Positions 12,146 through 48,315 are shown, numbered from the stretch's first letter. The stretch is DNA of 64,000 nucleotides from Candidatus Omnitrophota bacterium (GCA_016198905.1 JACQHR010000013.1:6153-70152), one strand, 5' to 3'. Numbers and translations are program-made. Notes: generated by a model not told the origin, from the sequence alone.

Positions 12146-12862
12146 TTAAACGGCCTGCGGCGCGGGAGGAAGGACGCTGGTGGGGCGGTTCGGGCCGCGG
12201 ACTTGGCAGTCCTGCGGATAGAGGTAGAGCGGCACGAGCGCGCGGGCGTCATCGTGCTCGCCCTTAAGCCATCGCGCATATCCGAGGCGGCCTAACGTGG
12301 CGGCGCGCGGCAACCAGAACTCTTGCGGCGCTATCGTGGCATCCTGGCCGTGCTGACGAAGGCGCTCGGCATAGAGCCCGGCGCCATCTCCCAGGAACAC
12401 CGCCGGCTCCTTGATGCGGCCAAGCCATTGATCGATCGGACCTAAGAAGTAGTCGCCGTGCCTAACGAGCACACCCTCCTCCCACCGATACAGTGCGGCG
12501 TAAACGTTCTTCTGCTTGGCGTCCAAGATCGGACAAATCGCGCCGGGGGCAAATGGCAGTGCTGCCGCCAAGACTTCGAGCGAGGGCATGCCAACCACCG
12601 GAATCTTTGTGGGAAACGCCAGCGCCTTGACGAAGGAGAGCCCAATGCGCAAGCCGGTGAACGAGCCTGGCCCGCGATCCACAACGATGGCCTCAAGCTG
12701 ATGCAGTTTCGTCCGCGCCGCCTCTAAGACGCGCGTAACCGCACCTGGCAACTCGACGGCGTGTGGATAATCTACCAATAATTCATAGGAAGAGATGAGG
12801 CGGTCGCCATCAAGGACGGCCACACCCAACTGACGCCCGGAGGTTTCAATCGACAGGAGCAT
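12146..12862 (-). CDS. tsaB: tRNA t6A biosynthesis protein TsaB (YeaZ)
   Basis: MLLSIETSGRQLGVAVLDG..., GPGSFTGLRIG, and 238 aa. It overlaps tsaE. Confidence 0.85.
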   Translation of the reverse strand: MLLSIETSGRQLGVAVLDGDRLISSYELLVDYPHAVELPGAVTRVLEAARTKLHQLEAIVVDRGPGSFTGLRIGLSFVKALAFPTKIPVVGMPSLEVLAAALPFAPGAICPILDAKQKNVYAALYRWEEGVLVRHGDYFLGPIDQWLGRIKEPAVFLGDGAGLYAERLRQHGQDATIAPQEFWLPRAATLGRLGYARWLKGEHDDARALVPLYLYPQDCQVRGPNRPTSVLPPAPQAV

Positions 12863-13472
12863 CGGAGTCGCTTTCTGAAGGTGCGGCAGACGACGGCGCG
12901 GGCGTTGCGGGTGGCTGCAGGGCTGCCACGATCGATGCGGCGTGCGTCCCGTGCGCCACGACGGTGATGCGGCGGCGGTTCGTGCTCACGTGATTCAGAC
13001 GAATCTTAATATGATCTTCGGGCAAGAAACCCTCGAACCGCTCCGCCCATTCAATGAGCGTGATTTTATGCGGGGAAAAAATCAGATCCACGTCAAGCCA
13101 GGCCACCGCCGAGGCTCCCTCCAAGCGACAACCGTCGATGTGCACGAGTCCAGGATCGCCGCCCGCCCCCCCGGCCCGCTGGTCATCAGAGCCGGGGCGG
13201 GCGGCTTTCGTAGACGGCGGGCCGGGGGCGTACTCGCGCATGAGCACGAAGGTGGGGCTCTTGAGCGTCTCCTGCTCCCGTCCTAGCCCGCGCGCGATGC
13301 CCTGAATCATCGTCGTCTTGCCGCTGCCGAGCTCGCCGTAGAATGCGACGACGTCGCCTGCCTTCAGCAGACGCCCGAATTGCTCCCCCAACGCCTGAGT
13401 CTCTTCGAGCGAATGACTCACCAGTTCAAACGTTGATGCGGATTGAGAGGTTGCGGATGATCGTTTGCTCAT
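12846..13472 (-). CDS. tsaE: tRNA t6A biosynthesis ATPase TsaE (YjeE), carrying a GC-palindrome insertion
   Basis: GELGSGKTTMIQGIARGLG (Walker A), SPTFVLMREY ... VHIDGCRL. Between them lies a Gly/Pro/Ala/Arg-rich insert (APGPPSTKAARPGSDDQRAGGAGGDPG) encoded by the element at 13157-13230. Confidence 0.8.
   Translation of the reverse strand: MSKRSSATSQSASTFELVSHSLEETQALGEQFGRLLKAGDVVAFYGELGSGKTTMIQGIARGLGREQETLKSPTFVLMREYAPGPPSTKAARPGSDDQRAGGAGGDPGLVHIDGCRLEGASAVAWLDVDLIFSPHKITLIEWAERFEGFLPEDHIKIRLNHVSTNRRRITVVAHGTHAASIVAALQPPATPAPSSAAPSESDSDAPVD
13157..13230. repeat. GC-block palindromic element, family D copy 1 (inside tsaE)
   Basis: cGCCGCCCGCCCCCCCGGCCCGC-tggtcatcaga-GCCGGGGCGGGCGGC-tttcgtagac-GGCGGGCCGGGGGCG. 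It is the reverse complement of the uvrC copy, block for block. Confidence 0.75.
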
Positions 13473-19110: not shown

Positions 19111-19962
19111 TTACGGCCTACGCCAGACGACGGGGCCGTGAGCCGTGTCTTCAAGGATAAACCCTGCTTCCTGAAACTCTCGACGGATCTGATCCGCGGA
19201 TTGGAAATCCTTGCGCTTGCGTGCGGCTTCCCGCGCGTCGAGCCTTGTGCGCCACTGTGTCGGTAACTCCACAGGCTGCGGCTGGTAGGAGAGAAAGAGC
19301 CCGAGGACGCGGCAGAGCGAGAGCAAGGCATCGGCGTGTTTGACCGCCTCCGCCTCGACGGTGCGACTCAGGTCCACGGCCAACCGATCCAAGACCGCGA
19401 GTGCCGCCGGGGTGTTGAGATCGTCATCCATCGCCCGCTCAAACTGAGCACGCGCCTCGCACGTCTCCAATGGCGAGAGGGTGCTGTTCGTACGCCATGC
19501 TTCGACGCGATGCAGCGCTTCCGCCAATCCGCGCCAGCGGGCCGCCGCCGCTTGCACACTCGGCGCGGAGTAATCGATCGGACTGCGGTAGTGGGCGCCG
19601 AGAAAGAAGATTTTCAGCGCTTCCGCATTGCCCTGGCAATTGTTCAGCGCGTCTTCCACCGTCGTGTAATTCCCCAGCGACTTCGACATCTTCTCGCCAT
19701 TGACGGTGAGCAGGCCGTTGTGCACCCAATAGCGGGCGAACGGCTTACCCGCGGCGACGGCTTGCGCGACTTCGTTCTCGTGGTGCGGGAACACAAGGTC
19801 CACGCCCCCGCCGTGGATGTCGAACTGATCGCCGAGATATTTCGTGCTCATCGCCGAACATTCGATGTGCCAGCCGGGACGCCCAGCACCCCAGGGACTT
19901 TGCCATGATGGCTCGCCGAGTTTCGCCGCTTTCCAGAGCGCAAAATCGAGCGGGTCGTGTTT

Positions 19963-19996
19963 GCCCGCCCCGGCAGTCGCAACAGGCGGGCCGGGG
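19963..19996. repeat. GC-block hairpin, family D-like short copy (inside cysS)
   Basis: GCCCGCCCCGGC-agtcgcaacag-GCGGGCCGGGG. It encodes the extra PGPPVATAGAG just before the conserved DPLDFALWK. Confidence 0.55.
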
Positions 19997-20280
19997 TGCT
20001 CGCCCGGTTCGATGCGAGCGCCGGCTTGCAATTCATCAAGGGTGCGGTTCGACAGCTTCCCATAGCCTTCACACTTTCTGACCGAAAAATACACATCGCC
20101 CTTCGCTTCGTACGCCACCCCTTTGATCAGGAGCGTGGAGATCAGGTCGGTCATCTCCGGCACGACGTGCGCGGTCGCGAGAGGTTCCTTGGTCGGAGGT
20201 TCAATGCCGAAGCGCCGCAACGTCTCGCGATAGCTGGCCAAGTACCGCTGCGACACCTCGGCGCACTTCGCTTTCAAGTC

Positions 20281-20297: not shown

Positions 20298-20585
20298 ATC
20301 TCTTGTCTGGCCTTCTCGATAATCTTGTCATCCACGTCCGTCACGTTGCGCACAAAGTTCACCTGATAGCCGCGAAACGTCAGGTAGCGGCGCAAGACGT
20401 CAAACACGTAGGCGCTGCGCGCATGGCCGATGTGGGGCACGTCGTACACCGTCGGGCCGCACACGTACATCGTCACCGCCGGCGGGTGCAGCGGCGTGAA
20501 GGACTCAATCTTGCGCGTGAGCGTATTGTAGAGCTTCATCTATGATCCGTTCATGGCTCGGCAGCGAGCGGGTCGCCGGCACGGG

Positions 20586-20753: not shown

Positions 20754-20796
20754 CGATCGCGACCCACGATGGATGGACCCGCTGCCAGAGTTAAAA

Positions 20797-22022: not shown

Positions 22023-22027
22023 ATCAT

Positions 22028-22157
22028 CAGCACAAAGCACAAAGCAGACAGCACAACACTTCCGCAGCAATGGTTTGTGGCATGAGATGCGACTGTTTCC
22101 TACTCAAATATGTCATCTACTTTGTGCTTTATGCTTTATGCTTTGTGCTGTGTGCTG
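22028..22157. repeat. inverted heptamer arrays (CAGCACA / CTTTGTG) flanking a ~60-nt spacer
   Basis: Left array at 22028-22058: cagcaca aagcaca aagcaga cagcaca. Right array at 22120-22157: ctttgtg ctttatg ctttatg ctttgtg ctgtgtg. The right arm lies in the ispD 3' end. Confidence 0.85.
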
Positions 22158-22856: not shown

Positions 22857-22960
22857 GTTTCACGTTCCAAGTTTCATGTTGCGGGCAACAAACGCCGAAG
22901 CTTTGATTCCCTACCCTGTCAACTTCGAACCTGAAACCTGAAACCTGAAACTTGGAACAT
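22850..22960. repeat. inverted heptamer arrays (GTTTCAT / GAAACCT)
   Basis: Left array at 22850-22884: gtttcat gtttcac gttccaa gtttcat gttgcgg. Right array at 22926-22960: cgaacct gaaacct gaaacct gaaactt ggaacat. Confidence 0.8.
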
Positions 22961-22961
22961 T

Positions 22962-26363: not shown

Positions 26364-27167
26364 CTACTGCAAATTGACGTGACTGCGTAACGACCAGCGA
26401 GATAAGACGCGGCGGTCCGGTAGCCCTTCCTGAATGGGGCCGGTCGCCTCCCCCTTGATGAATTGCTGGATAATCGGGTTCTTGGAGCCGCGAATCTGCT
26501 CCGGCGTTCCCACTTCGATAATGCCCCCATTGTAGAGCATGGCTATGCGGTCTGCCACTTTGTAGGCGCTGCGCATGTCGTGGGTGACCACGACGGAGGT
26601 GACTTTCAACCGATCGCGCAGGGCCACGATCAACCCGTTGATGATGTCTCCCATGATGGGGTCGATCCCCGTCGTCGGCTCATCGTAGAGCACGATTTCC
26701 GGGTTCATCGCCAAGGCGCGCGCGAGGCCCACGCGCTTGCGCATGCCGCCCGAGAGCGCCGAGGGATACAGCTCGTCGATCTCCTGCAACCCGACGAGCT
26801 GAAGGCATTCGTGCACGCGTTGCTCAAGAGCCGCCGGCGGCGTCTGCGTGTGTTCTCTCAGCGGAAACGCCACGTTCTCGAAGACCGTCATGGAATCAAA
26901 CAGGGCCGCACTCTGAAAGAGCATCCCAAACTTCAGCCGCACCTCGTTGAGCTCGCGGCCGGAGAGCGAGGCGACGTCGACGCCGCCAATCACGACCGAC
27001 CCCTCGTCCGGCTTGAGCAGGCCGATCATGTGCTTGAGGAGCACCGACTTGCCGCAACCCGAGCGACCGATAATGACCGTCGTCTCGCCGGTGTTGATCG
27101 TCAGGTTCACGCGGTCAAGGACCTGATGGTCATTGAACGACTTCGATAAATCCTTGATCTCAATCAT
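26364..27167 (-). CDS. mlaF: ABC transporter ATP-binding protein, MlaF-like
   Basis: GRSGCGKSVLLK (Walker A), LSGGMRKRVGLARAL (signature), LYDEPTTGIDP (Walker B), and 267 aa. Confidence 0.85.
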   Translation of the reverse strand: MIEIKDLSKSFNDHQVLDRVNLTINTGETTVIIGRSGCGKSVLLKHMIGLLKPDEGSVVIGGVDVASLSGRELNEVRLKFGMLFQSAALFDSMTVFENVAFPLREHTQTPPAALEQRVHECLQLVGLQEIDELYPSALSGGMRKRVGLARALAMNPEIVLYDEPTTGIDPIMGDIINGLIVALRDRLKVTSVVVTHDMRSAYKVADRIAMLYNGGIIEVGTPEQIRGSKNPIIQQFIKGEATGPIQEGLPDRRVLSRWSLRSHVNLQ

Positions 27168-27174
27168 CTAGGCT

Positions 27175-27246
27175 GGGGCGTGGGGCACGAGACGTGGGGC
27201 GCGGGAACCGGCTCTCCCCCGTCTCCTGTCTCCCGCCCCTTGCCCC
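27175..27246. repeat. GC-rich palindromic element, family C copy 1 (fills the mlaE-mlaF gap; inverted orientation)
   Basis: GGGGCGTGGGGCACGAGACGTGGGGCGCGGGAACCGGCTCTCCCCCGTCTCCTGTCTCCCGCCCCTTGCCCC. Its reverse complement begins GGGGCAAGGGGCGGGAGACAGGAGACG, identical to the first 27 nt of the lnt copy. Confidence 0.85.
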
Positions 27247-27250
27247 ATGC

Positions 27251-28057
27251 TTATCGCCACACAAAGTAGAACATGGCCGTGCAGATACAATCCGCCGCGA
27301 TAATGAGCAGGAACGACACGACCACTGCGACCGTCGTCGTGCGGCCGACCCCTTCGGCCCCCCCTTCCGTGCGGAAGCCTTCGAAGCAGCTGACGATACA
27401 GATGATCATCCCGAAGATGAACGACTTCAACAGCCCGGAGAAAAGATCCTTGAAGACCAGCGGCAGCGTGGCCATCTTCCAATACAGGCTGGGCAGCACC
27501 CCGAGCTTCATCGTGCCGATGATGAACCCGCCGAGGATGCCGATCGCATCCGCCCAGAGGGTCAGCAGCGGCAACGCCACGAGGATCGCGAGGAACCGCG
27601 GCACGACGAGAAACTTGACCGGATCCACCGCTAGCGTGGTGAGCGCATCGATCTGCTCGGTGACCTTCATGGTGCCCAGCTCGGCGGCGATGGCGGAGCC
27701 CACGCGCCCGGCGACGATGAGGGCGGTCATCACCGGGCCGATTTCCCGCACGACGGAAAGCGACACGAGGCTGGCGATGTAGATCTCCGCCGCCAGTTTC
27801 TTCATCTGATAGGCGCTTTGAAACGCCAGCACCATCCCGATGAAGAGCGCTGAGATGGACACGATGAACCACGACTGAATGCCGATCTTCGAAATTTCGC
27901 GCGCGACGGCATTCCCGCGCAGCGGCCGCGCCACCGCCCCGCCGACGGTTTGCACGAATAAGAGGCACAGGCTGCCGGTGTACCAGAACAGTTCGACGGC
28001 ACGCGTTCCGGCTGCCGCCGTGGTTTCAAGAAACGGGCCGCTGAACCGTCCGATCAT
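27251..28057 (-). CDS. mlaE: ABC transporter permease, MlaE-like
   Basis: MIGRFSGPFLE..., multi-TM, with REIGPVMTALIVAGRVGSAIAAELGTMKVTEQIDAL typical of MlaE. The start is ATG 28057. Confidence 0.85.
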   Translation of the reverse strand: MIGRFSGPFLETTAAAGTRAVELFWYTGSLCLLFVQTVGGAVARPLRGNAVAREISKIGIQSWFIVSISALFIGMVLAFQSAYQMKKLAAEIYIASLVSLSVVREIGPVMTALIVAGRVGSAIAAELGTMKVTEQIDALTTLAVDPVKFLVVPRFLAILVALPLLTLWADAIGILGGFIIGTMKLGVLPSLYWKMATLPLVFKDLFSGLLKSFIFGMIICIVSCFEGFRTEGGAEGVGRTTTVAVVVSFLLIIAADCICTAMFYFVWR

Positions 28058-28186
28058 CGTGACGCGACCTCGCGGTCGCTGCCGGGGAGGTTCCCGTAGA
28101 CACGAATTCCGCAATGCGCGTGCGGACATTCGCAGCCGTCACGCCACATCGCGGAATCGTGGATCGCTTGCGTTGAGCAAGACACG

Positions 28187-33912: not shown

Positions 33913-35114
33913 TCGTACCGCAGCGCATCGACGGGAGCAAGGTACGCCGCCCGCACCGCGGCATAGGTGCCCGCCAGGACGGTGAGAATGAACGTCGCGC
34001 CGACCACCGCCGTGACATCGATGCTGTTGATCTGCGTCGGGATGTGATCGAGATAGTAGACCGTCGGCGGAAAGAGCGAGACGCCGAACGTCCCCTCAAC
34101 CCATTTGACGAAGCTGTTGAGATTCAACGAGAGCATAAACCCGCCTGCAAGCCCTAGACATACCCCCACAAAACCGATGACGCAACCCTGCGAGAGGAAC
34201 AGTGACGCAATGGACAGCCGCGTGGCTCCCAGCGCCCTGAGGATGCCGATGTCTTTCGTCTTCTCCATCACGATCATGATGAGCATGGACATGATGTTGA
34301 GGGCGGCCACGACGATGATCAGCGTCAGAATGACGAACATGACGGTTTTCTCCACGCGCAACGCGCCAAAGAGTGCCGGGTTCAATTCCATCCACGTCCG
34401 CACACGGTATGAGGCGTCCAATTCACGCTCAATCGCCCGCTGGACATCAGGCGCGCGCTCCAACTGATCCACTTTGACACCGATACCCGTGACGACCCCC
34501 TTGGACTGGTAGAACGCCTGCGCTCGAGTCAGCGTCACGGCAATGAGGTTGGCATCATACTCGTACATGCCCGACCGAAACAACCCGCTGATGCTCAACT
34601 GATGGGGCTTCCCATCCACGGGACTGACGAGCGTCACCACATCTCCAGGCTTCGCATGCAGGAATGCGGCGAGTTCGGTGCCAATAGCCGCTTCGTGATC
34701 GGCCTTCGGCAAGTGGCCCATCACAATGTAGTCGCCAAGATGATTGACGCGCGCTTCGCGATCGACGTCGATGCCGCGCAGCAGCACGCCGAAAGCTTGA
34801 TCCGGCAGCCGCAAGATCGCCTGATTGGAAATAAACGGGCTCACCCCGACGACGTGTTCCATCGCGCTGAGGCGCCGCATGAGTTCCTCGGTGTCTTTGA
34901 TGCCGCTTTGCGCATCCACGATGATGTGGGCGTTGGTGCCGACGAGTTTGTCTTTCATGTCGCGATCAAATCCGCTCATGACGGCGAGCACCACGATGAG
35001 GGCTGCCACGCCGAGCGCCACACCGCCGATCGACAGCACCGCGATGATCGAAATGAACCGCTCGCGCCGTTTCGCGAAGAGGTATCGCAATCCGAGCCAG
35101 AGTTCGTATCTCAT
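33909..35114 (-). CDS. lolC: lipoprotein-releasing system permease LolC/LolE
   Basis: MRYELWLGLRYLFAKRRERFISIIAVLSIGGVALGVAALIVVLAVMSGF..., with a MacB-like periplasmic domain and a FtsX C-terminal region. 401 aa. Confidence 0.85.
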   Translation of the reverse strand: MRYELWLGLRYLFAKRRERFISIIAVLSIGGVALGVAALIVVLAVMSGFDRDMKDKLVGTNAHIIVDAQSGIKDTEELMRRLSAMEHVVGVSPFISNQAILRLPDQAFGVLLRGIDVDREARVNHLGDYIVMGHLPKADHEAAIGTELAAFLHAKPGDVVTLVSPVDGKPHQLSISGLFRSGMYEYDANLIAVTLTRAQAFYQSKGVVTGIGVKVDQLERAPDVQRAIERELDASYRVRTWMELNPALFGALRVEKTVMFVILTLIIVVAALNIMSMLIMIVMEKTKDIGILRALGATRLSIASLFLSQGCVIGFVGVCLGLAGGFMLSLNLNSFVKWVEGTFGVSLFPPTVYYLDHIPTQINSIDVTAVVGATFILTVLAGTYAAVRAAYLAPVDALRYE

Positions 35115-35449
35115 TAACCTGCCAGCAGCTGCTGAACGGCTTTTTCCAGAGCCGGCAACTTTTGTTCGACCACGTCCCAGACCACTTCCACGTTCACACC
35201 AAAATATTCATGAATCAGAATGTCTCGGAGGCCGGCGATCTTGCGCCATTCTATCTGCGGCTGCTGCTGTTTCACCGGTTCTGGCAAGCGCTTGACCGCT
35301 TCACCAATCACCTCGAGGTTGCGGATCACCGCATCCAGCGTTTTGGCATCCTGGGAGAGCGCGGCTAATGACAAGCCCTGCGTAAAGGAGCGGATCTTCC
35401 GGATCGCTTCAAGAATATCTTCCAGATAGACTTTAGAATCCCGGGACAT
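35114..35449 (-). CDS. hepT: HepT-family (DUF86) toxin, HEPN RNase
   Basis: 111 aa. The Rx4HxY motif is present as RDILIHEY. It overlaps the upstream mntA. Its stop overlaps the lolC ATG (TAATG). Confidence 0.8.
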   Translation of the reverse strand: MSRDSKVYLEDILEAIRKIRSFTQGLSLAALSQDAKTLDAVIRNLEVIGEAVKRLPEPVKQQQPQIEWRKIAGLRDILIHEYFGVNVEVVWDVVEQKLPALEKAVQQLLAG

Positions 35450-35726
35450 AGACCGTTTCTTTGAGGATGCGCTCTCTCAACCGGGGTTTCACGGTATCTG
35501 CCAGCACCAGATCCACGCGGCGCTGCAATAGCTCCTCGAGGAAAAATTTGAGATCCATATACGCGTCAAAACTATTGCGCTCCAGCTCCACCAGCACGTC
35601 CACATCGCTCGTACTGGTCTCTTCCCCTCGGGCGATAGACCCAAACAACCCCAAGCGCCGCACGCCGAGTTGTTGCACCGCCCGGCGCTGCTGGGCGAGT
35701 CGTCTCAGGATTTCACTGCGATCCAT
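35433..35726 (-). CDS. mntA: MntA-family minimal nucleotidyltransferase antitoxin
   Basis: 97 aa. GLFGSIARGEETSTSDVDVLVEL matches the GSxxRG...SDxD nucleotidyltransferase motif. Confidence 0.8.
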   Translation of the reverse strand: MDRSEILRRLAQQRRAVQQLGVRRLGLFGSIARGEETSTSDVDVLVELERNSFDAYMDLKFFLEELLQRRVDLVLADTVKPRLRERILKETVYVPGF

Positions 35727-35896: not shown

Positions 35897-37405
35897 TCAT
35901 GAGATTTCAGGTTTCAGTAAAGGAAAAAGAATGACGTCCTTGATCGAGGGTTGGTTCAGCAGAATCATCGCGAGGCGGTCGACGCCGACGCCAAGGCCGC
36001 CGGCCGGCGGCATGCCGTATTCGAGCGCCGTCACAAAGTCTTCATCAATCACCCGCCTTTGGGGCGTGGGGCGTGGGGCGTGGGGCGTGGGAGAACTGGT
36101 TTTCCCTCGCCCCCCGTCTCCCGCCCCCTGCCCCTCTAGCTGAGCTTCGAATCGGCGACGCTGCTCGATCGGATCATTCAACTCGGAGTACGCATTCGCC
36201 ACTTCCATGCCGCCGATGTAGAGCTCAAAACGCTCCGTGATGAGTGGATTGTCAGGTTTGCTCTTGGCTAGCGGCGACAACTCCGTCCAATAATCCACCA
36301 CGAAGAGCGGTTTCGATTTCGTCTTCGGGGAAAAGAGCTGCTCGGTCAGTCGGACGAGTTGGGAGCGGTTCAGTTCCTTGACCTGCATCCCCTTGCGCTG
36401 CAGGACCGTTTGCATCTCTTCGAGCGAGGACTGCGGCGTCAACCCCATCTCTTCCATCGCCTTGGCGAATGACACGCGCTCCCACGGCGGTGTGAGATCA
36501 ATCGGCTGACCTTGATACTCACATTGGAGCGAGCCGACGAGCGTTTTGGCCGCGTCGCAAATGAGCTCCTGCACGAAGTCCATCATGAACGCGCAGTCTT
36601 GATACGCCGCGTACGCCTCGAGCATCGTGAATTCCGGATTGTGCTGCGTCGAGAGGCCTTCATTGCGAAAGCAGCGGTTGATTTCATACACGCGTTCCAG
36701 TCCTCCAACGAGCAGCTTCTTGAGATACAGCTCCGGCGCGAGGCGCAGATAGAAATCCGCATCGAGCGCGTTGTGATGCGTGACGAACGGCTCGCCCGCG
36801 GCGCCCCCGGCGATAGGATGCATCATCGGCGTTTCGACTTCGAGAAATCCACGGCGCTCCAGCGTGCGCCGCAGCGACGCCAGCAACTGGCTGCGCTGGA
36901 AGAAGACTTTCCGTACCGGCTCATTGGCGATGAGATCAAGATACCGCTGGCGATAGCGGATCTCGACGTCCTTGAGCCCATGCCACTTCTCCGGCATCGG
37001 TCGCAAGGCCTTCGCCAATATGGTAAAGCGATCCACCTGCACCGTCACTTCATCGGTCTTCGTGCGAAAGAGCGCGCCGGTCACTCCGATAATGTCGCCC
37101 AGGTCCAGCTCGCCGAAAAGTGTAAACGCCTCATCGCCCACGCGATCCTTCTTGACACACATCTGAATCTTGCCGCTGGCGTCCCGCAGATCGGCGAAGT
37201 TCAGTTTGCCCATCGTCCGTTTGGCGCAGAGGCGGCCGGCCGTGCTAACCGACTTGCCCTCGGTGAACCCCGCCACCAACGTCTGGATCGGCTCAGCCTT
37301 CGGAAACGCGGCTCCATACGGAACGATTCCTTGCCGCTCGAGCGCATGCAGCTTGTCGCGGCGGGTGCGGGCTTGTTCGTTCAGATCAGGGTCGTTGTAA
37401 GCCAT
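35897..37405 (-). CDS. lysS: lysine--tRNA ligase (class II), carrying a palindromic-element insertion
   Basis: MAYNDPDLNEQARTRRDKL..., an OB-fold, and class II motifs (FLEVETPMMH; CFRNEG; GGLGVGVDRLAM). The start is ATG 37405. The insert GQGAGDGGRGKTSSPTPHAPRPTPQRR lies between RFEAQ and IDEDFVTALEYGMPP. Confidence 0.92.
   Translation of the reverse strand: MAYNDPDLNEQARTRRDKLHALERQGIVPYGAAFPKAEPIQTLVAGFTEGKSVSTAGRLCAKRTMGKLNFADLRDASGKIQMCVKKDRVGDEAFTLFGELDLGDIIGVTGALFRTKTDEVTVQVDRFTILAKALRPMPEKWHGLKDVEIRYRQRYLDLIANEPVRKVFFQRSQLLASLRRTLERRGFLEVETPMMHPIAGGAAGEPFVTHHNALDADFYLRLAPELYLKKLLVGGLERVYEINRCFRNEGLSTQHNPEFTMLEAYAAYQDCAFMMDFVQELICDAAKTLVGSLQCEYQGQPIDLTPPWERVSFAKAMEEMGLTPQSSLEEMQTVLQRKGMQVKELNRSQLVRLTEQLFSPKTKSKPLFVVDYWTELSPLAKSKPDNPLITERFELYIGGMEVANAYSELNDPIEQRRRFEAQLEGQGAGDGGRGKTSSPTPHAPRPTPQRRVIDEDFVTALEYGMPPAGGLGVGVDRLAMILLNQPSIKDVILFPLLKPEIS
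36061..36134. repeat. GC-rich palindromic element, family C copy 2 (inside lysS)
   Basis: (GGGGCGT)x4 GGGAGAACTGGTTTTCCCTCGCCCCCCGTCTCCCGCCCCCTGCCCC. The centre GGTTTTCCCTCGCCCC is shared with the lnt copy. The left arm has become a perfect heptamer tandem. Confidence 0.85.
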
Positions 37406-37490
37406 GGAGGAGCTTTGATTATACGGCGTCGTCGAGCAACGTGTCAAAGCGAGAAGGTATTCTGTCGAAAACTCCTTCTGATAGCTACCG

Positions 37491-37598
37491 GGGCCACGGG
37501 TGACCCGGCGACGGGTCCCCTGCGCCGCCCGCAGAACCAGCGCGATAGTCGCTGGGCGAGGACGGCGCAGGGTGGCGCCGGGGCAGGCCCCGTGGCCC
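37491..37598. repeat. long hairpin element, family B copy 1 (lnt-lysS gap)
   Basis: The outer stem is GGGCCACGGG (37491-37500) / CCCGTGGCCC (37589-37598). The nested stems are CCCCTGCGCCG/CGGCGCAGGG and CCAGCG-cgatagt-CGCTGG. The 39-nt apex at 37527-37565 is identical to 46691-46729. Confidence 0.85.
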
Positions 37599-37605
37599 GC
37601 GAACG

Positions 37606-39297
37606 TTATCGAAGACGTGCTATCATCCAACCGAGGATGCCGATGAGGCAAGCCCAAGCGAACCAGTCACCCCAACGCTCATAGAGGGTGCGGGTGTAGC
37701 TCAGCGGGACATCACACGCGTGCGTGCCGGCAATGAAGAGTTCGCGACCCTGTTCATCGTGAACGCTTCCAAGAATGCGACCGGCGGGATCGATGCAGCC
37801 GGACCATCCCGTGTTGGCCGCGCGCACCACCGGCACCCGCAGCTCCACCGCGCGGAAGATCGAGGTCTGCGCGTGCTGATAGGCCGCCGCCGTCGGCCCG
37901 AACCACGCGTCGTTGGTGATGACCACCAGCATCCGCGCCCCTTCTTGGACAAACCGTCGCGCAAGCTCAGGAAACACATCTTCGAAACAGATGAGGACGC
38001 TGAACGGGGGCAAGGGGCGGGAGACAGGAGACGTGGGAAAACCGGTTTTCCCTCGCCCCTCGTCTCTCGCCCCCCGCCCCAGCACATCAGCTTCTTGCTC
38101 AATATGAAATACGGTGTGGTGATGCCCACGATCGAAGTCGCCGATCGGCGGCAACAGGCGGCGCAGCCACGGCAAGGTGCGTTCAAAGGGCACGAACTCG
38201 CCGAACGGGACCAGGTGCAGCTTGTCATAGCGCTGATCGATGACGCCGCGATGATCGACGAGTGCTGCGCTGTTGGTCATCATCCACTCCACGCCATCAA
38301 GATGTCCCATTGGAGCGCCCACCAACAGGGGTGCTTTCACCGACTTGGCAAGCGCAAAGACGCGCTGCGTGATCTCCTCATCGAGCCCGAAATAGCCCGG
38401 CACGGAAGTCTCCGGCCAGACGATGAGATCAGGCTCGGTGCGCGCAGCTTCACGCGTGAGCGTTTCGTACTGCGTCAAGATCCGCTCCTGGAACGCTTCG
38501 TCCCATTTCTCAGTTTGAGGGATGTTGCCCTGCGCCACCGCTACCCTGATCGATGAGGCATCGACGATGCTGCTGATGCGCCACGCGCCGTAGCCAAGCC
38601 CAATGAGGACGAGGATCATGACGCACGCCGCGCGAATAAGAACGGATTGTGTGCGTTTTCCGCCCCCCACCCCCCCGGCCCGCCGATTACTACCGTCGGG
38701 GCGGGCCCGCCCCCTGCCCCAAACTGTCGTGCTGATGTAGTCCGCAATCGCCGCATTCCCCATCACGATCAGGAACGATATCCCCCACGCGCCGGTCAGA
38801 TCTGCGAACTGAATGAGCGGCCGCCACGACGTCTGCGAATACGCCAGCAGATTCCAGCCCATCCCCGTGAGGACGTGGCTGCGCGCAAACTCCAGCGTCA
38901 CCCACAGCGCAGGAATCACAATCAGACTCCGGACACCAGATCTCAGACCACAGACAAACCTACCCTGATGTCTGATGTCTGATGTCTGATGTCTGACGAC
39001 GCACCAGCCGAAGATCCCGAAATAGAGCGCGAGGTACGCGCACAGCACGAGCCACCCGACGACGGTGACATAGATCAGCCACCACATCGAGCCGAGGAAG
39101 AACAGTGCACCGATGAGATACGACCACCAAAACGCCGCGCGCGATGACGTCGTGCGCAACAGCAACAGCCACGGAACGAAAGCAATCCACGCGCACCAGG
39201 GCTGATTGAAATTCGGAAATGACAGGACGAGCAGGATGGCGCTACTGAGCGCCGGCAACAGAGGACGAACGATGCGGGACAAACGACGCGTGGTCAA
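37606..39297 (-). CDS. lnt: apolipoprotein N-acyltransferase, carrying three repeat-derived insertions
   Basis: N-terminal multi-TM region plus a CN-hydrolase domain with E/K/C motifs (VWPETSVPG; YDKLHLVPFGE; VLICFED). The suggested start is TTG 39297, which overlaps the upstream stop (TTGA). The ORF-track Met at 39393 would overlap the upstream gene by 100 nt. Confidence 0.85.
   Translation of the reverse strand: MTTRRLSRIVRPLLPALSSAILLVLSFPNFNQPWCAWIAFVPWLLLLRTTSSRAAFWWSYLIGALFFLGSMWWLIYVTVVGWLVLCAYLALYFGIFGWCVVRHQTSDIRHQGRFVCGLRSGVRSLIVIPALWVTLEFARSHVLTGMGWNLLAYSQTSWRPLIQFADLTGAWGISFLIVMGNAAIADYISTTVWGRGRARPDGSNRRAGGVGGGKRTQSVLIRAACVMILVLIGLGYGAWRISSIVDASSIRVAVAQGNIPQTEKWDEAFQERILTQYETLTREAARTEPDLIVWPETSVPGYFGLDEEITQRVFALAKSVKAPLLVGAPMGHLDGVEWMMTNSAALVDHRGVIDQRYDKLHLVPFGEFVPFERTLPWLRRLLPPIGDFDRGHHHTVFHIEQEADVLGRGARDEGRGKTGFPTSPVSRPLPPFSVLICFEDVFPELARRFVQEGARMLVVITNDAWFGPTAAAYQHAQTSIFRAVELRVPVVRAANTGWSGCIDPAGRILGSVHDEQGRELFIAGTHACDVPLSYTRTLYERWGDWFAWACLIGILGWMIARLR
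38006..38080. repeat. GC-rich palindromic element, family C copy 3 (inside lnt; 75 bp)
   Basis: GGGGGCAAGGGGCGGGAGACAGGAGACGTGGGAAAACCGGTTTTCCCTCGCCCCTCGTCTCTCGCCCCCCGCCCC. This is an imperfect palindrome centred on AACCGGTT. Confidence 0.85.
38660..38720. repeat. GC-block palindromic element, family D copy 2 (inside lnt)
   Basis: CCGCCCCCCACCCCCCCGGCCCGCC-gattactaccgtc-GGGGCGGGCCCGCCCCCTGCCCC. Confidence 0.7.
38923..39000. repeat. inverted heptamer arrays (CAGACNN / TGATGTC) inside lnt
   Basis: Left array at 38923-38957: cagactc cggacac cagatct cagacca cagacaa. Right array at 38966-39000: tgatgtc x4 perfect, then tgacgac. The module is 78 nt (26 codons) and the frame stays open. Confidence 0.85.
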
Positions 39298-39935
39298 TAG
39301 CTCGACGAATGTTGCAATTGCTGTTGCGACTTCCAGACGCCATACCCGACGAGCGATCCCCAGATCGCGCCATGCAGCACGCTGAAGTACCACGGCTTAA
39401 ACGCGAGCCACCACCAGAACGATCCGGCGCATCCGCTCACGGCGCCGATCAGGACATGTGTCAGTAACCGCCGGCTCTTCAACAGGCCGCACGCCGCCGC
39501 GAGGAGTACGAACACCGATCCCGCGAGTCCAAAAGCTTGGAAGAGCGTCCACAGCGTTTCGAGCTCGAGCCGAAACGGCCACAGCGCCCGCAGGATGTCT
39601 TCTCGAGACAACCCAGCGATATCGCCAGACCAGAGTTTGACGGAACTGACATAGAGGCTAATCGGAATATAGGGAATCCATCCGCAGATGATGCCGCTGA
39701 CCGGCACACCCACCCATCGCATCCAGAGAGGTTTCTTCGAAAGCCTTGCGGCGAGTCCCACGCCCACGAGGGCCAGCAATGCGCCGTGGGCCGCTCCCGC
39801 CGGCACGATGTGCCAAGTGAACTGCCCACTAAACACGTCCGACGGCACGGGAAACTTGGCATAGCACCACCACGCATTGATCGCCCCACCCACTCCGCCC
39901 ATCAATCCGATCAGACCAAGCGCACGAGCTCTCAT
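39294..39935 (-). CDS. hypothetical multi-pass membrane protein
   Basis: 213-aa ORF with about 6 hydrophobic segments. It is co-directional and tightly packed with its neighbours. I recognise no motif. Confidence 0.5.
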   Translation of the reverse strand: MRARALGLIGLMGGVGGAINAWWCYAKFPVPSDVFSGQFTWHIVPAGAAHGALLALVGVGLAARLSKKPLWMRWVGVPVSGIICGWIPYIPISLYVSSVKLWSGDIAGLSREDILRALWPFRLELETLWTLFQAFGLAGSVFVLLAAACGLLKSRRLLTHVLIGAVSGCAGSFWWWLAFKPWYFSVLHGAIWGSLVGYGVWKSQQQLQHSSSY

Positions 39936-39999: not shown

Positions 40000-42900
40000 C
40001 TATTGCCCATGACACTTCTTGTACTTCTTATTGCTACCGCACGGGCAGGGCTCGTTGCGACCGACTTTGGGGCCTGTGTGTTGCGTTGGACTTCGAGGCT
40101 GGAGGCTGGAGGCTGGAGGCTGGAGGCGTTTCTCCGAAGCTTGGAGCCTGGAGCCTGGAGCCGAACCTATTGGAAGCGTTGATGCTTCATCAGTGAGAGG
40201 AGCGGGAATGAAGCGCGCGGCTTCCGAGGCCTCGGGATGGACTTCTTGCACCGGCGTTCTAGCGAACACGCTGACAGGGCGCGCCTCAGCCGCAACGGGC
40301 TGTACACGCAACAGCATCGTCAGCGAATCCAGCTTGATGGACTCGATCATCACTTGAAACAATTCGTGGGCTTCGCGCTGATATTCGACGACGGGATCGC
40401 GCTGGCCGTAGGCGCGCAAGTGGATGCCTTCGCGCAACGCATCCATCATGTAGAGATGGTCTTTCCATTTTTGATCCATGATCGAGAGCAGGACGGTGCG
40501 CTCCAGCTGCGCCATCATCTCCGGGCCGATCGAGACCCGCTTCGCCTCATAGGCCTGCTCGAAGGCGTGCGTGATGGCCGCGCCAATGGCGTCGCGGTCT
40601 GCGATCGTCGCTTCTTCGCCGAGCGTCACCATGAACTGGCGGCCGGCGGCTTCGCGCAACCCGGCGAGGTCCCAGGCATCCGATCGCAGTTCGTTGGAGG
40701 CAAACGTGCTAAGCAGGCCATCGGCGACCTCTTTGATGATTTCGCGGACAAGACCCTGGAGGTCCACTCCTTCGAGAATCCGACGGCGCTGCTCATAGAT
40801 GACCTCGCGCTGCCGGTTCATCGTGCTGTCGTACTCGACGAGTTGTTTCCGGATATCAAAGTTGTGGCCCTCGACGCGCCGCTGCGCGGTCTCAATGGCT
40901 TTCGAGACCATCCCGTGCTCGATCGGCAAGCCCTCTTCCCATTTAAACCACGGCAGCTCCATCAGCTTCGCGATGCGATCCGAGCCGAAAATGCGCATCA
41001 AATCATCTTCGAGGGAGAGATAAAACCGCGAGGATCCCGGATCGCCCTGACGGCCGGAACGACCGCGCAACTGATTGTCGATGCGGCGCGCCTCATGGCG
41101 CTCGGTGCCGAGCACGTGCAGGCCTCCGACAGCGACGACTTGTTCGTGTTCAGACTCGCAGAGTTTCTTGAATCGCTCGACGATGGCGTGCCGCTCAGTC
41201 TCCTCCAGCGGGGCTTGGCGCTTCTCTTCCTCGGCGCGGATGGCGTCATCCGCCAGCGCTTGAGGATGGCCGCCAAGGAGAATGTCGGTGCCTCGTCCGG
41301 CCATGTTGGTGGCGATCGTGAGCGCGCCTTTGCGGCCGGCCTGGGCGACGATGTGCGCTTCATGCTCATGATATTTGGCGTTGAGGACGTTGTGCGGCAG
41401 CCCGGCCTTGATGGTCGCTGCGGTCTGCACGAGACGCACGATGTCCTCGAGCCTGAAGATGAGCGTCGACTTGGGCGCCTCGCGCTTGAGTTGCGCCAAC
41501 CACTCGCCGACTTGCGCATCCGTGAGGGTCGCCGGCCGCGCGAGTCCTTGTTCAAGCGACGTGCGCAGCGCGTCGCCGAGCGATTCCTTCTTCAGCTCCT
41601 CCAGCGTCCACTGACACACCGTGCTCAACCGCTTCATGATGGGGCCGGGCTCTTTCAGGAACCGCGAGAGCCGCTCGGACTTCTCGATCGAGATCGTGCC
41701 GATGAGCACCGGCTGTCCGGCGCGGTAATGACTGACGATTTCCTGCACGACCGCGAGAAATTTCTCATCCTCGGTTTTATACACCGTATCCGCAAAGTTG
41801 GCGCGGATGAGCGGGCGATTGGTCGGGATGGCCAAGACGTCGAGCTGGTAGATCGTGCTGAACTCCTGCGCTTCGGTGGACGCGGTGCCGGTCATGCCGG
41901 CGAGCTTTTCGTACATGCGGAAGTAATTCTGAAAGGTCACCGAGGCCAGCGTTTGATTCTCTTCGCGAATCCGCACGTTTTCCTTCGCCTCGATCGCTTG
42001 ATGGAGCCCATCGCTCCAGCGCCGTCCCGGCATCAGACGCCCCGTGAACTCATCCACGATGATGATCTCGCCGTCCTTGACCATGTAGTCCACGTCGCAT
42101 TTGAAGAGCTCGTGCGCGCGCAGCGCCTGATTGATGTGATGCACGAGGCGCATGTTCATCTCGTCGTAGAGATTGCCGACCCCGAGCAGCTCTTCGCAGT
42201 GCTTGATGCCCTCTTCCGTGAGACTGACACCTTGCTCTTTCTCATCCACTTCGTACTCCGCGCCTTTGTTCAACCGGGCGACCAATTTATCCAGCTTGTA
42301 GTAGAGCTCGGTCGACTCTTCGGCGGGGCCGGAGATGATGAGCGGTGTTCTGGCTTCATCGATCAAAATGCTGTCGACTTCATCCACGATGGCATAGTGG
42401 TACTCACGTTGGACGAGATCTTCGAGGCGAAACCGCATGTTATCGCGCAGGTAGTCGAAGCCGAACTCGTTGTTCTGCCCGTAGGTGATATCGGCCGCGT
42501 AGGCCTCTTTGCGCGGCACCGGCCGCAGGTGCATAAAGCGCTCGGCCGTCTGCGTCCAGGAGGGATCGTAGAGAAAGGAGAGCGACTCTTCTCCCGGTCG
42601 CCGCTCAGCCGGATCCACACCCTGGATGACGCCGAGGGTGAGCCCCAGCGCGTGATAGATCGGCCCCATCCAGCGCGTATCGCGGCGCGCAAGGTAGTCG
42701 TTGACCGTCACGATGTGCACACCGCGGCCCGTCAGGGCGTTGAGATACGCAGGCAGGGTCGCCACGAGCGTCTTGCCTTCCCCGGTTGCCATCTCCGAAA
42801 TCTTGCCCTCGTGCAGCACCATGCCGCCCATGAGCTGCGTATCGAAGTGCCGCATGTTCAGCACCCGTCGGCTCGCCTCTCGCACGACCGCGAAGGCTTC

Positions 42901-43197
42901 CGGCAGGATCGTACCGAGCGCTTTCTGCTGAATGGCGCGCCGTTGCTTTCTGAGCTCAAGCCGCTCGTCATGATCGCGCTCGTACCATGCCGGATCGGCC
43001 GGTGTGAGGAACGTGTGAGTCGTCAGCTGTTCGCGAAGCCGCACGCGGAATTCGTCGGTCTTCGCCCGCAACTGGGCATCCGAGAGCTTCTGAATCTCCG
43101 GCTCGAGCCGATTGATGCGCTCGACCGTCGGCCAGAGCCGCTTGCGCGCCCGCTCGTGGTGCGTGCCGATCACTTTCTGAACAATCCAATTGACCAT
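40000..43197 (-). CDS. secA: preprotein translocase ATPase SecA
   Basis: 1065 aa. [20 protein letters not shown] (Walker A), [19 protein letters not shown] (DEAD), and the C-terminal zinc-binding tail [14 protein letters not shown]. Confidence 0.95.
40094..40158. repeat. two heptamer arrays (GGAGGCT x4; AGCCTGG x3-4) inside the secA C-terminal linker
   Basis: First array at 40094-40121: cgaggct ggaggct ggaggct ggaggcg. Second array at 40131-40158: agcttgg agcctgg agcctgg agccgaa. Confidence 0.85.
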
Positions 43198-45872: not shown

Positions 45873-46107
45873 GTTCTGCGCTCGTAGCGTTATATGAAGA
45901 GTGACGTGGAAGAGGGCAGGCTCGGAACCTGCCCTCCTAAGAAAAAGTATACCTGAGGTTGCGGAACGCCGACGCAACTCTATGAAAAATTATGCAACAG
46001 CACGTCCCGCTAAGGGATTGTGCGAGGACTCAAGGAGGAGTAAGACAATTCCGTAGTGGTCACGTGTGGCGGGTGACACCTCATGAGTTGCGCGCCATCG
46101 GCCCGGA

Positions 46108-46254
46108 CAGGTCCTGAGCCGAACGTCTCGGAGGGCGAGCGACCATGGTTCCCGCACCCAGCGCGCTGGGTGCGGGAGAGCGAGCCCGAGAGCCGAGCAC
46201 CGGCGGCCACGGTGGGGCCGCCGAGTGCGTGCCGGTGAGGGACGCTGGCCGGGG
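46108..46254. repeat. long structured GC-rich element, family A copy 2 (ogt - HD-GYP gap)
   Basis: See copy 1. The internal hairpin here is the perfect 28-nt palindrome CCCGCACCCAGCGCGCTGGGTGCGGG (46151-46178). Copy 1 has GCCCAGCAC...GTGCTGGGC at that position. Confidence 0.8.
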
Positions 46255-46295
46255 CGGCAACATGTAGAGCCTCTCGGCAGGTTTGTGGGATGAAG

Positions 46296-46623: not shown

Positions 46624-46792
46624 GTGTCCCGAGTCAGAAATCCGTTCATCAACTGCGGAGCGGGTGGCACGGCGGAAGTCCCCTTCGCCCGCCCGCAGAA
46701 CCAGCGCGATAGTCGCTGGGCGAGGACGGGTGAAGGGTCCGCCGTGACAGGACCCGCCCAGGGATTGGTCGCGAATCTCTGACTCAGGACAC
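46624..46792. repeat. long hairpin element, family B copy 2 (uvrC-ogt gap)
   Basis: The terminal arms are GTGTCCCGAGTC (46624-46635) / GACTCAGGACAC (46781-46792). The nested stem is CCCTTCGCCCG/CGGGTGAAGGG. The apex is identical to copy 1. Confidence 0.8.
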
Positions 46793-48315
46793 TAGCGTGC
46801 GTGCAAACGCTGCAGAATCGTTTCGGCCAAGGCGCGGGAGCAGCGACCGGCCCGCGCCACGTCCTCCGCAGAAGCTCGCCGAAGTCCCTCCAACGATCCA
46901 AACTCTCGCAGCAACCAGAGCTTGCGCCGCGGCCCGACACCGGCAACTGCATCCAATGCCGACGCGGTCACGGCACGCTGCCGTCGCTGACGATGAAAGG
47001 TGATGGCGAAGCGATGCGCCTCGTCGCGCACGTGTTGCACCAAATGCAGGACCGGCGACGTCGGCAGCAGCACGACCGGCTCTTGCGACCCTGGCAGGAA
47101 GATCTGCTCGAACCGTTTGGCCAGTCCCATGATCGGCAGTGTCAGCGAGAGCGCCGTCAGCTCTTCGCACGCTGCCGCCAATTGCCCTTTGCCGCCATCA
47201 ACAAGAATCAGATCCGGCAGCGGCAGTTCCCCGGCCCGACCTTCACGAGCGCCGCCCGCCCCGGCTTTCGATCCAGGCGGGCCGGGGGGGCGGGCGGTCG
47301 CCAGCGATCCACTATAACGCCGCCGGATCACCTCGCGCATCATCTGGTAGTCATCTCCGCCGTAGGCGGATCCGCCTTTGGCGGAGATGCCCTGCGCCGT
47401 TTGAATCGTAAAGCGCCGATAGTGCGCCTTGTGCGGCTTGCCATCGACAAACACGACCATCGAGCCCACGGCGAAGTCGCCGAAGATGTTGGAAATATCG
47501 AAGGCCTCGATGCGGCGCGGCAACTGCGGCAATGTGAGGGCAGCCTGCAGCTGCTCGAGCGGGCCGGCAACGAGCGATTTCTCTTTCGCGACGATGATGG
47601 AGGTGAGGGCTTGGATTTGATCGCGTACTCGAGCCGCCTCCTCAAATCGTCGATGAGACGCGGCCTGCGTCATGCGCCGCGACAGATCCCGCAGCAGCCG
47701 CTCGCGCTTGCCCTCGAGAAACGCCACGAGGTCATCGACCATCCGCTGATAATTCTGCGGCGTCACGTAGCCCACGCAGGGGGCCAAGCACTGGCCGAGA
47801 TGATACTCGAGGCACGGGCTCTTCGGGAACGTCTTGCACGTGCGCATCGGAAACACCCGGCGCAGAAACCGCACCGCCTGATGCATGAGGGTCGCTTCGG
47901 TGTACGGACCGAAGTAGTGTGCGGCGTCGTCGAGCTTGCGCCTGGCCACCACAAGCCGAGGGAACGGTTCGTTCGTGATCTTCAGCATCGGGTAGCGTTT
48001 ATCGTCGCGGAAGGTCACGTTGTAATAGGGGGTGAGGTCTTTGATGAGCTGGGCTTCGAGCAGGAGGGCTTCGGCTTCCGACGCGGTTTGGCGCGTCTCG
48101 AGATCGGCCACCATCGTCATCATCCGTGCGATGCGGGGACTGAGGAGGGGGCGGGCCGTGCGAAAATACGAGGCGACGCGCTTGCGCAGGCTCAGCGCCT
48201 TGCCGACGTAGAGCAGCCGGCCCTGCGCATCGCGAAACAGGTAGACGCCGGGCTGATCCGGAAGATGCGCTACTCGCCGGCGAAGACTTGAAACACCGGC
48301 AGTTTGCCCAGCCAT
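46792..48315 (-). CDS. uvrC: excinuclease ABC subunit C, carrying a GC-palindrome insertion
   Basis: LPDQPGVYLFRDAQGRLLYVGKA (GIY-YIG), a UVR domain (FEEAARVRDQIQAL), an RNase H-like region and a (HhH)2 C-terminus. The start is ATG 48315. The insert SLATARPPGPPGSKAGAGGAREGRAGE lies before PDLILVDGGKGQL. Confidence 0.9.
   Translation of the reverse strand: MAGQTAGVSSLRRRVAHLPDQPGVYLFRDAQGRLLYVGKALSLRKRVASYFRTARPLLSPRIARMMTMVADLETRQTASEAEALLLEAQLIKDLTPYYNVTFRDDKRYPMLKITNEPFPRLVVARRKLDDAAHYFGPYTEATLMHQAVRFLRRVFPMRTCKTFPKSPCLEYHLGQCLAPCVGYVTPQNYQRMVDDLVAFLEGKRERLLRDLSRRMTQAASHRRFEEAARVRDQIQALTSIIVAKEKSLVAGPLEQLQAALTLPQLPRRIEAFDISNIFGDFAVGSMVVFVDGKPHKAHYRRFTIQTAQGISAKGGSAYGGDDYQMMREVIRRRYSGSLATARPPGPPGSKAGAGGAREGRAGELPLPDLILVDGGKGQLAAACEELTALSLTLPIMGLAKRFEQIFLPGSQEPVVLLPTSPVLHLVQHVRDEAHRFAITFHRQRRQRAVTASALDAVAGVGPRRKLWLLREFGSLEGLRRASAEDVARAGRCSRALAETILQRLHAR
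47229..47298. repeat. GC-block palindromic element, family D copy 3 (inside uvrC; inverted relative to the tsaE copy)
   Basis: CCCCGGCCCGA-ccttcacgagc-GCCGCCCGCCCCGGC-tttcgatccag-GCGGGCCGGGGGGGCGGGCGG. Confidence 0.75.

Follow-up and report, generated by a model that had tools for sequence, protein, structure and literature searches.

The closest described counterparts of the element treated here are the Rickettsia palindromic elements (RPEs; Ogata et al. 2000, via PMC10969869). As far as that account describes them, they are short palindromic repeats of multiple families, without coding capacity of their own, which lie both between genes and in frame in unrelated housekeeping genes, where they are read as an extra peptide compatible with function; they are given as about 100–150 bp long, AT-rich and confined to Rickettsia, with one conserved peptide in one frame per family. 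The present analysis concerns Family C, a palindromic repeat of about 75 bp in a 64,000-nt stretch of DNA from a Candidatus Omnitrophota bacterium (GCA_016198905.1 JACQHR010000013.1:6153-70152), which is referred to below as the window and is numbered from its first letter. Family C is found in frame in the lysyl-tRNA synthetase (LysRS) gene lysS, in frame in the apolipoprotein N-acyltransferase gene lnt and in the spacer between mlaE and mlaF, and in relatives the positions in lysS and lnt are recurrently occupied by hairpins of different families. A preliminary description of the window had compared the element to the RPEs. The behaviour, as far as the RPE account goes, is indeed alike, since Family C is palindromic, lies between genes as well as in frame inside unrelated genes and recurs at unrelated loci and genomes, whereas family membership does not hold, Family C being set apart by its size (about 75 bp), GC-rich composition and Omnitrophota host. 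In addition, its arms are tandem heptamers, and a given codon position is taken by one family in some relatives and by another family in others.

The arms relate Family C to a second described group. Rehm et al. 2015 (PMC4692102) reported inverted pairs of heptameric simple sequence repeats, with the unit GGGAATC in Xanthomonas and GGGGA(C/T)T in Nostoc (STRR type); the arrays are G-rich, show a preference for about four units, lie mainly between co-directional open reading frames (ORFs), are under-represented in coding sequence, have G-quadruplex potential and are unexplained, and 70–75 cases per genome are convergent heptamer pairs able to form stem-loops. The Family C arms are likewise convergent tandem arrays of about four 7-nt units, and only period 7 is enriched. 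In contrast to the described repeats, however, there are many unit types here (GGGGCRN, CAGCACA, ATTTTGG, CTGATGT, GAGGCTG and others), the arms abut as compact hairpins, and copies stand in frame in essential genes.

REP/REPIN elements are hairpins of about 70–110 nt composed of two inverted halves, with several families per genome; they reside in spacers, leave no target duplication and persist for long at their positions. REPs carry a GTAG-type head recognised by a cognate Y1 transposase (RAYT), lie outside genes by definition and do not consist of heptamer arrays, whereas two of the three window copies of Family C are inside essential ORFs and no GTAG/CTAC head is present at the ends of the window copies. 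[quoted passage not shown] Finally, the tandem repeats of Borgs, to the extent that they are covered in PMC9879509, are fast-evolving and of independent origins, occur between genes and in frame, and give rise to new disordered protein regions. The repeats described here are similarly intergenic and in frame and add low-complexity protein segments, whereas the Borg repeats, in that coverage, are direct tandem repeats of variable unit length instead of inverted heptamer hairpins and are not located at conserved positions in core essential enzymes. Judged by the features that define the RPE, REP and MITE families, Family C is outside them. Two known behaviours come together here in a new host, and the added property is that the same codons of essential genes are occupied again and again by families that replace one another. 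No description of the phenomenon was found in the literature searched on palindromic, heptamer or in-frame repeats of Omnitrophota.

Three related hairpins in the window

All three copies of Family C are where they had been placed before, within 1–2 nt, and Pfam and homologue matches agree with the earlier gene identities, namely LysRS, Lnt, MlaE, an ABC ATPase and MlaD. The first copy (36059/36060-36134, minus strand) lies in lysS (35897..37405, minus strand), which encodes a class II lysyl-tRNA synthetase of 502 aa that is 100% identical to a Candidatus Omnitrophica metagenome-assembled genome (MAG) protein, and it occupies codons 425-449 in frame with the peptide GQGAGDGGRGKTSSPTPHAPRPTPQ. 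The second (38006-38081, minus strand) is in frame in lnt (37606..39393, minus strand), where it encodes residues 439-462 (GRGARDEGRGKTGFPTSPVSRPLP) of the longest ORF of 595 codons; the deposited protein P0121 has 550 aa and a start at 39258. The third (27174-27246, minus strand) fills the 83-nt gap between the mlaE stop at 27251 and the start of an MlaF-like ABC ATPase at 27167, beginning 4 nt past the stop and ending 7 nt short of the ATG. The flanking genes are mlaE (27251..28129, minus strand; Pfam) and the ATPase gene (26364..27167, minus strand; Pfam ABC_tran), with MlaD downstream.

The copies are clearly related to each other. As previously claimed, the lnt and intergenic copies have an identical 27-nt arm, GGGGCAAGGGGCGGGAGACAGGAGACG, which matches exactly at 38007-38033 (plus) and 27220-27246 (minus) with none expected in shuffles, and the lysS and lnt copies have a common block of 16 nt, GGTTTTCCCTCGCCCC, exact at 36098-36113 and 38044-38059 with 0.06 expected; the lnt copy is a mosaic of the other two. 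A profile made from the copies finds them again at E = 1e-12 to 1e-20. The intergenic copy had been called opposite in orientation, and the 27-mer is indeed on the minus strand there; the calls themselves are ambiguous because the element is palindromic, with 77% identity between the lysS and lnt copies in direct alignment and 83% complementarity in inverted alignment.

Each copy is an imperfect palindrome of about 75 nt with about 80% G+C in a window of 61.4% G+C, and each folds better than shuffled sequences (z = -6.0, -5.1 and -3.3 for the three DNA hairpins). In a sliding RNAfold scan with a threshold of -42 kcal/mol, which is swamped by the GC-rich background, the copies are among the most negative (-60.5, -54.7 and -51.1). 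The unit, seen by alignment in both arms of every copy, is GGGGC followed by two variable bases, so the stem consists of five G:C pairs and a 2-nt mismatch every seven bases, with the ends GGGGCAR...YGCCCC, and the 5′ arm of every copy is G-rich on either strand. Tandem Repeats Finder reports period 7 with 4.4–4.6 copies in both arms of the lysS and lnt hairpins. On the sense strand of lysS the 3′ arm, (ACGCCCC)x4, has no deviating unit, and the 5′ arm is irregular (GGGGCAG GGGGCGG GAGACGG GGGGCGA). The perfect (GGGGCGT)x4 tandem lies at 36060-36091. This tandem had been taken for the product of secondary change in a discrete element; the tandem itself is perfect, while the notion of a discrete element turned tandem does not fit, all arms being heptamer arrays. 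At 36061-36088 (plus) the array satisfies the sequence rule for a putative G-quadruplex (at least four runs of at least three G, loops of 1–7 nt). The whole window has 0 Rfam matches at the gathering threshold, so that no known RNA family applies, and no promoter was found at the mlaE-mlaF spacer hairpin.

Family C is one family in a clade-wide class of inverted heptamer-array hairpins and not a stand-alone element. The window is rich in period-7 arrays of about 4–5 units, mostly in inverted pairs (Tandem Repeats Finder), and the density of such arrays is 1.9 per 10 kb in the window and its close relatives vs 0.13 in the other 75 Omnitrophota loci, while in the same census that of other periods is about 0. 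Hairpin scans that allow only ungapped Watson-Crick stems miss most of the array hairpins because of their periodic mismatches.

In-frame insertion in LysS and Lnt

The reading frames, catalytic motifs and insert peptides of the host genes are as quoted in the preliminary description. In LysS the insert (GRGKTSSPTPHAPRP) is flanked by RFEAQ...IDEDFVTALEYGMPP and in Lnt (GRGKTGFPTSPVSRP) by LVPFGE...VLICFED. The NAYSEL-GMPP spacing is 64 residues in the window LysS vs 42–45 in most of the 75 other Omnitrophota lysS loci compared. In comparison with the solved Geobacillus LysRS structure 3A74, the extra residues correspond to a 17-residue gap between two aligned helices; that alignment was used for placement, as the AlphaFold 2 model of LysS (28-sequence alignment) has a predicted local distance difference test (pLDDT) score of 57 and is too poor to place the insert. 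In lnt the Family C copy occupies the last of three insertion sites, and the gene carries two other in-frame repeat inserts in addition to it. Site 3 is empty in the related loci L003, L004 and L045, and the alignment with E. coli Lnt breaks exactly at the insert, with 39 residues here vs 12. In the AlphaFold model of Lnt (pLDDT 87, predicted template modelling score 0.89) the insert forms a coil whose pLDDT is below 50, flanked by confidently modelled elements, and this coil is predicted to directly precede the strand that bears the catalytic Cys (VLICFED). Two other low-confidence stretches in the model match the two further insert sites, and a short stretch at 353-356 matches none.

Judged from these alignments, both coding copies are in-frame additions at length-variable loop positions, and most of the phylum is without them. 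For the proposed placement of the inserts in surface loops, the observations are the low-pLDDT coil in Lnt and the gap relative to 3A74 in LysS. An ancestral loop shared by orthologues had been named as an alternative to insertion, and the same peptide does stand at the same site in some relatives (P0016/L205), but an ancestral loop is unlikely because occupancy is patchy and the near relative L206 is empty.

Turnover at the same sites in relatives

A survey of 120 LysS relatives (65–79% identity) and 120 Lnt relatives reveals exactly one insertion hot spot in LysS, occupied in 63/120, and exactly three in Lnt, occupied in 40, 32 and 74 of 120, respectively. The peptides at the LysS site fall into four families: A (GSRLKAQGK..LQPSASSL), B (GLGAEGSGQK..PRAPSPEP), C (GQGAGDGGRGK..PHAPRPTP) and D (GSRVKGEGK..LHPxPST). 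Families A, B and C recur at the Lnt hot spots together with a further family E. The LysS-site peptide families are translations of hairpins with different units, and the hairpins are apparent in the DNA of L001-L003. At Lnt site 3 the occupants include a Family-C-like hairpin (L002), a TTCAAGG/CCTTGAA hairpin (L005) and a perfect 25-bp palindrome (L006). Hairpin size is uniform, about 57–81 nt with about 4–4.5 units per arm. One-armed arrays are found as well, GTTCGGG x5 and CTTCAGC x4 in the lnt genes of L001 and L040 and GGTCTAC x5 in lysS of L054, and the L081 lysS hairpin has lost most of one arm. The lysS site of L002 (L002:11186-11401) has a double insert, in which the left arm and loop of family B stand twice in tandem ahead of one right arm, so that NAYSEL and GMPP are separated by 72 residues.

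The occupant is only weakly tied to phylogeny. The nearest LysS neighbour shares the insert type in 44/111 cases vs an average of 27 in shuffles, a measure that replaced a neighbour-joining tree that was star-like and uninformative in its leaf order. Pairs of LysS proteins that are 94–95% identical outside the site have different occupants: P0058 (C) and P0089 (A), P0040 (D) and P0051 (B), and P0022 (B) and P0078 (empty). The lysS genes of L081 and L082 are 88% identical and their flanks are collinear up to CAACTCRAA and AGAGCGACG, yet the hairpin between these is wholly different. Similarly, the lysS site has Family C in L205 and the short native LDGAGVKGKQRV in L206 (85% nucleotide identity), and at Lnt site 3 the same two loci have families C and E of equal length. 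Many close relatives, among them L206, L084 and P0026, are empty at the same sites. Within one genome, on the other hand, the adjacent lysS and lnt sites often have the same family, including rare subfamilies (P0118/P0127, P0016/P0159). On this comparison of sequences, fixed sites are recurrently occupied or their occupants replaced, as opposed to three one-off insertions, with a turnover faster than 5% protein divergence.

Family C in other genomes

Copies of Family C recur outside the window. In L205, a syntenic contig with the gene order RF1-SecA-Lnt-LysS-MacB...ClpC-MlaE-MlaF-MlaD-RadA, both the lysS site and Lnt site 3 are occupied by Family C, and a C-like hairpin lies between mlaE and mlaF. 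L002 has a Family C-like hairpin in lnt and another in the mlaE-mlaF spacer, L081 has Family C in lysS, and three genomes have a C-like hairpin between mlaE and mlaF. A metagenome scan with the profile yielded at least 14 further Family-C-like hairpins, several of which stand in frame, namely in two PF00849 pseudouridine synthases (L100, L128), a Ser/Thr kinase (L183) and further long ORFs. The irregular left arm of the window lysS copy and its (ACGCCCC)n right arm are both present in L100 and L162 as well. Similarity follows the family and not the site: the copies are 75–91% alike whatever the gene or genome, and those at orthologous positions are no more similar than the rest.

Between the window and L205, the lysS genes are 75% identical in protein and 73% in DNA, and their four-fold degenerate sites are at 50%, i.e. 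saturated, vs 91% identity of the lysS hairpins in a codon-window alignment, which equals the best-conserved catalytic motif. In the pairwise matrix, the window lysS copy is also 91% identical to the L205 lnt copy.

Probable translation of the inserts

All inserts leave the downstream catalytic motifs in frame, and stop codons are avoided within them, as in arrays whose units contain TAG or TGA exactly the in-frame-stop units are mutated. In L082 lysS (about 3200-3300), with the units GCTCTAG/GCCTAGA, the altered ones are GTTCGAG and GCCTCCA, and in lnt site 3 of L005 (L005:8322-9974), with the units TTCTAGG/CCTTGAA, AAG stands for TAG and TCA for TGA. This pattern argues for read-through over bypass of the inserts, which would then be translated; a tryptic peptide predicted to span the LysS insert is, for example, TSSPTPHAPRPTPQR. 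The two coding copies in the window had been described as read in the same element frame. Their peptides are indeed related, as are those of the coding Family C copies in general (GxGAGDxGRGK ... PxAPRPxP), but the argument from frame is weak, since a heptamer array, read in any of its three frames, yields the same peptide with a 7-residue period and frame conservation is uninformative for the arms.

Origin of the hairpins

Of the possible explanations we lean, with modest confidence, towards non-autonomous palindromic repeats that are copied between loci and persist only at permissive positions, with their arms later homogenised by slippage. Family C would be one family of clade-specific palindromic repeats without coding capacity and with arms of about 4–4.5 heptamers, whose copies would have spread between loci by DNA-level copy-and-paste or conversion that leaves no target duplication, either through a trans-acting hairpin-specific enzyme or through replication template switching. 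Selection would retain copies only in harmless places, namely short co-directional spacers and very few permissive protein loops, and slippage would afterwards homogenise the arms in place into perfect 4-unit arrays. In lysS and lnt the hairpin would be transcribed and translated as a low-complexity loop, first Gly/Arg-rich and then Pro/Ser/Thr-rich, leaving the enzymes intact, and the process would be essentially selfish or neutral. Copying between loci is required and convergence is insufficient because of the 27-nt and 16-nt blocks, the dispersed conservation of both arms and the within-genome matches of subfamilies.

Several observations weigh against such copying. No target-site duplication is present at the three window copies, which are flanked by CTG|..|CGT, GAG|..|AAA and CAT|..|AGC, nor was any terminal signature found beyond the arms. 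No transposase or Y1/RAYT-type gene was found among the 56 window proteins scanned against Pfam, all matches being to housekeeping domains, although this is a weak negative for a window of 64 kb. The count of three copies applies to the same 64 kb, and these copies are 80–86% alike in the pairwise matrix with no sign of current activity. The reuse of one codon position by five families is more site-specific than naive random transposition followed by selection, and the only hint of a common target motif is a weak tendency towards an A ahead of the first G-run. The 91% conservation of the lysS hairpin could instead reflect selection on the sequence itself, and no compensatory changes that would bear on pairing are present in 8 Family C copies, where the paired columns are invariant G:C and hence uninformative.

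Such selection is the basis of the explanation that we consider unlikely though not negligible, in which the hairpins are functional nucleic-acid elements at fixed positions and the families are interchangeable cassettes; the candidate roles, which we regard as doubtful to the same degree, include a structure for the stabilisation or processing of mRNA, a pause site in translation, a G-quadruplex or hairpin switch and a protein-binding site. A function would agree with the 91% identity of the lysS hairpins of the window and L205 beside saturated four-fold sites, with the high occupancy of the LysS site and Lnt site 3, with the uniform size and strict reuse of one (LysS) or three (Lnt) positions, with the C-like hairpin in the mlaE-mlaF spacer of three genomes and with the fit of (GGGGCGT)x4 to the G-quadruplex rule; inverted heptamers between aligned ORFs are unexplained in Xanthomonas and Nostoc too (PMC4692102). 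Yet many close relatives are empty at these very sites, and Family C occurs in unrelated genes without a common function. Furthermore, pairing is not kept: in the lysS copy the right arm is homogenised and the left arm facing it is irregular, and in L081 little is left of one arm. No covariation was found, nor any sense/antisense asymmetry, with 58 vs 45 G:U pairs and similar minimum free energies (MFEs) in 19 hairpins. No terminator-like site was found in 26900-27500, where the intergenic hairpin is followed by AGCCTAGATG without a T-run.

A local origin at each site is, in our view, improbable. Slippage would expand an array at a tolerant site, a fold-back template switch would make the inverted arm, and similarity between loci would be convergence on G-rich units. 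In its favour, one-armed arrays occupy the same sites (lnt of L001 and L040, lysS of L054), the arms can be perfect 4-unit arrays with units that vary by locus, the enrichment is specific to period 7, and the empty lysS allele GGGGTGAAGGGCAAG already resembles two units. Nevertheless, convergence cannot yield an identical irregular 27-mer at two loci, nor can it produce the same irregular left arm together with the same right arm across genomes in lysS, lnt, rluD-type genes and others, or account for rare subfamilies common to lysS and lnt within one genome. Slippage probably acts as a secondary homogenisation of the arms.

A more speculative proposal, improbable to a like extent, is that the hairpins are cassettes installed and exchanged by a structure-directed process at a few fixed docking positions, with each genome imposing its own family. 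It is similarly improbable that the docking positions would be the one in LysS, the three in Lnt and specific operon spacers, with the hairpin itself under selection, and the role suggested for such a cassette, be it to bind a protein specific to the clade or to serve core genes as a checkpoint of translation or mRNA decay, is just as conjectural. If true, this proposal would explain together why occupancy is high, why size is uniform and why the hairpin keeps 91% nucleotide identity where synonymous sites are saturated. Lastly, ordinary lineage-specific protein loops or linkers under protein selection, with incidental palindromy of the DNA, are very improbable: the inserts do lie in loops, are of low complexity like many linkers and have the same peptide at the same position in some relatives (P0016, P0159), but Family C sequence also fills a non-coding spacer, the two halves of the peptide are encoded by reverse-complementary DNA, unrelated peptides swap between 95%-identical proteins and the base state of the phylum is without the segment.

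Copying of palindromic repeats between loci, if correct, would extend RPE-like selfish DNA inside genes to a free-living, GC-rich candidate phylum and would tie in-gene palindromes to the unexplained excess of heptameric repeats in bacteria. The sites in LysRS, Lnt and SecA offer natural replicates, with more than 100 related alleles and five or more interchangeable families at the same codon, which allow the mutation mechanism, the tolerance of essential enzymes for disordered loops and the de novo origin of low-complexity segments to be measured. On a practical level, the inserts lengthen proteins and break domain models (TsaE, SecA, Lnt) and can mislead the annotation and phylogenetics of Omnitrophota MAGs.

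Other hairpins and neighbouring genes

Most of the window arrays are in spacers of co-directional genes, and interior coding copies are found in lysS, lnt (twice) and secA. As seen by spacer folding, many such spacers are largely filled by an array hairpin with its own unit, of which CAGCACA is the commonest and ATTTTGG, CAAGCTG, GGAAGCT and TTTCAGG are others, with an occasional period of 8 or 9; the CAGCACA/TGTGCTG unit is present at about 9 window loci, and the spacer stems have a periodic mismatch. These hairpins are located at 2643-2742, 3462-3606, 6522-6630, 8195-8275, 10269-10335 and 15630-15705 and further along at 17314-17412, 22018-22162, 22843-22965, 51500-51616, 56662-56752 and 59225-59375. 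In lnt, site 1 (38926-38994, minus strand) has a hairpin from a different family, in frame and with the peptide RHQTSDIRHQGRFVCGLRSGVRS, whose CTGATGT x4.6 array is perfect and which is absent from most orthologues, and site 2 (38650-38721, minus strand) has a GC-rich palindrome of a non-heptamer family, in frame with the peptide WGRGRARPDGSNRRAGGVGGGKRT. The C-terminal linker of SecA has an in-frame heptamer hairpin (40088-40168, minus strand) with GAGGCTG / CCAGCCT units and a family A peptide, which makes secA a third essential gene with such an insert. The secA gene (40000-43197, 1065 aa) has DEAD and P-loop domains about 150 and 88 residues longer than the Pfam profiles, respectively, which suggests insertions beyond this hairpin.

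The palindrome at Lnt site 2 belongs to a second GC-rich family (CCCGCCCCCCCGGCCCGC...GCGGGCCGGGG), with copies at 13159-13227, 19963-19996, 38663-38706 (Lnt site 2) and 47229-47297. The TsaE gene (12846..13472) contains one of these copies, and its match to the Pfam TsaE profile ends at position 63/128. The lnt-lysS spacer (37485-37600) contains a hairpin of about 115 nt that is nearly perfect, is not built of heptamers and represents a different repeat family (RNA MFE z = -5); it has 0 Rfam matches at E<=1 and a 78%-identical paralogue at 46661-46756. An intergenic block of 250 nt (20546-20796) is extreme in structure, with an RNA MFE of -146 kcal/mol, and contains repeats with 83–95% identity to a second locus (20568-20631 corresponds to 46090-46153 and 20673-20755 to 46174-46256). 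Next to the block is a cysteinyl-tRNA synthetase ORF (19111..20277) whose Pfam match starts only at position 70 of the model; the block may therefore have displaced or interrupted the N-terminus.

Nearly all genes of the window (1-64000) are on the minus strand, and all are core housekeeping genes, including aro, ilv and leu genes, four aminoacyl-tRNA synthetases, SecA, RF1, MurJ, LptE, BamD, ComEC and UvrD. The repeats thus lie within the core genome and not in an island. Between macB and lysS there is an MNT (nucleotidyltransferase)/HepT toxin-antitoxin pair (35114-35726), which is missing in the syntenic L205 and L206.

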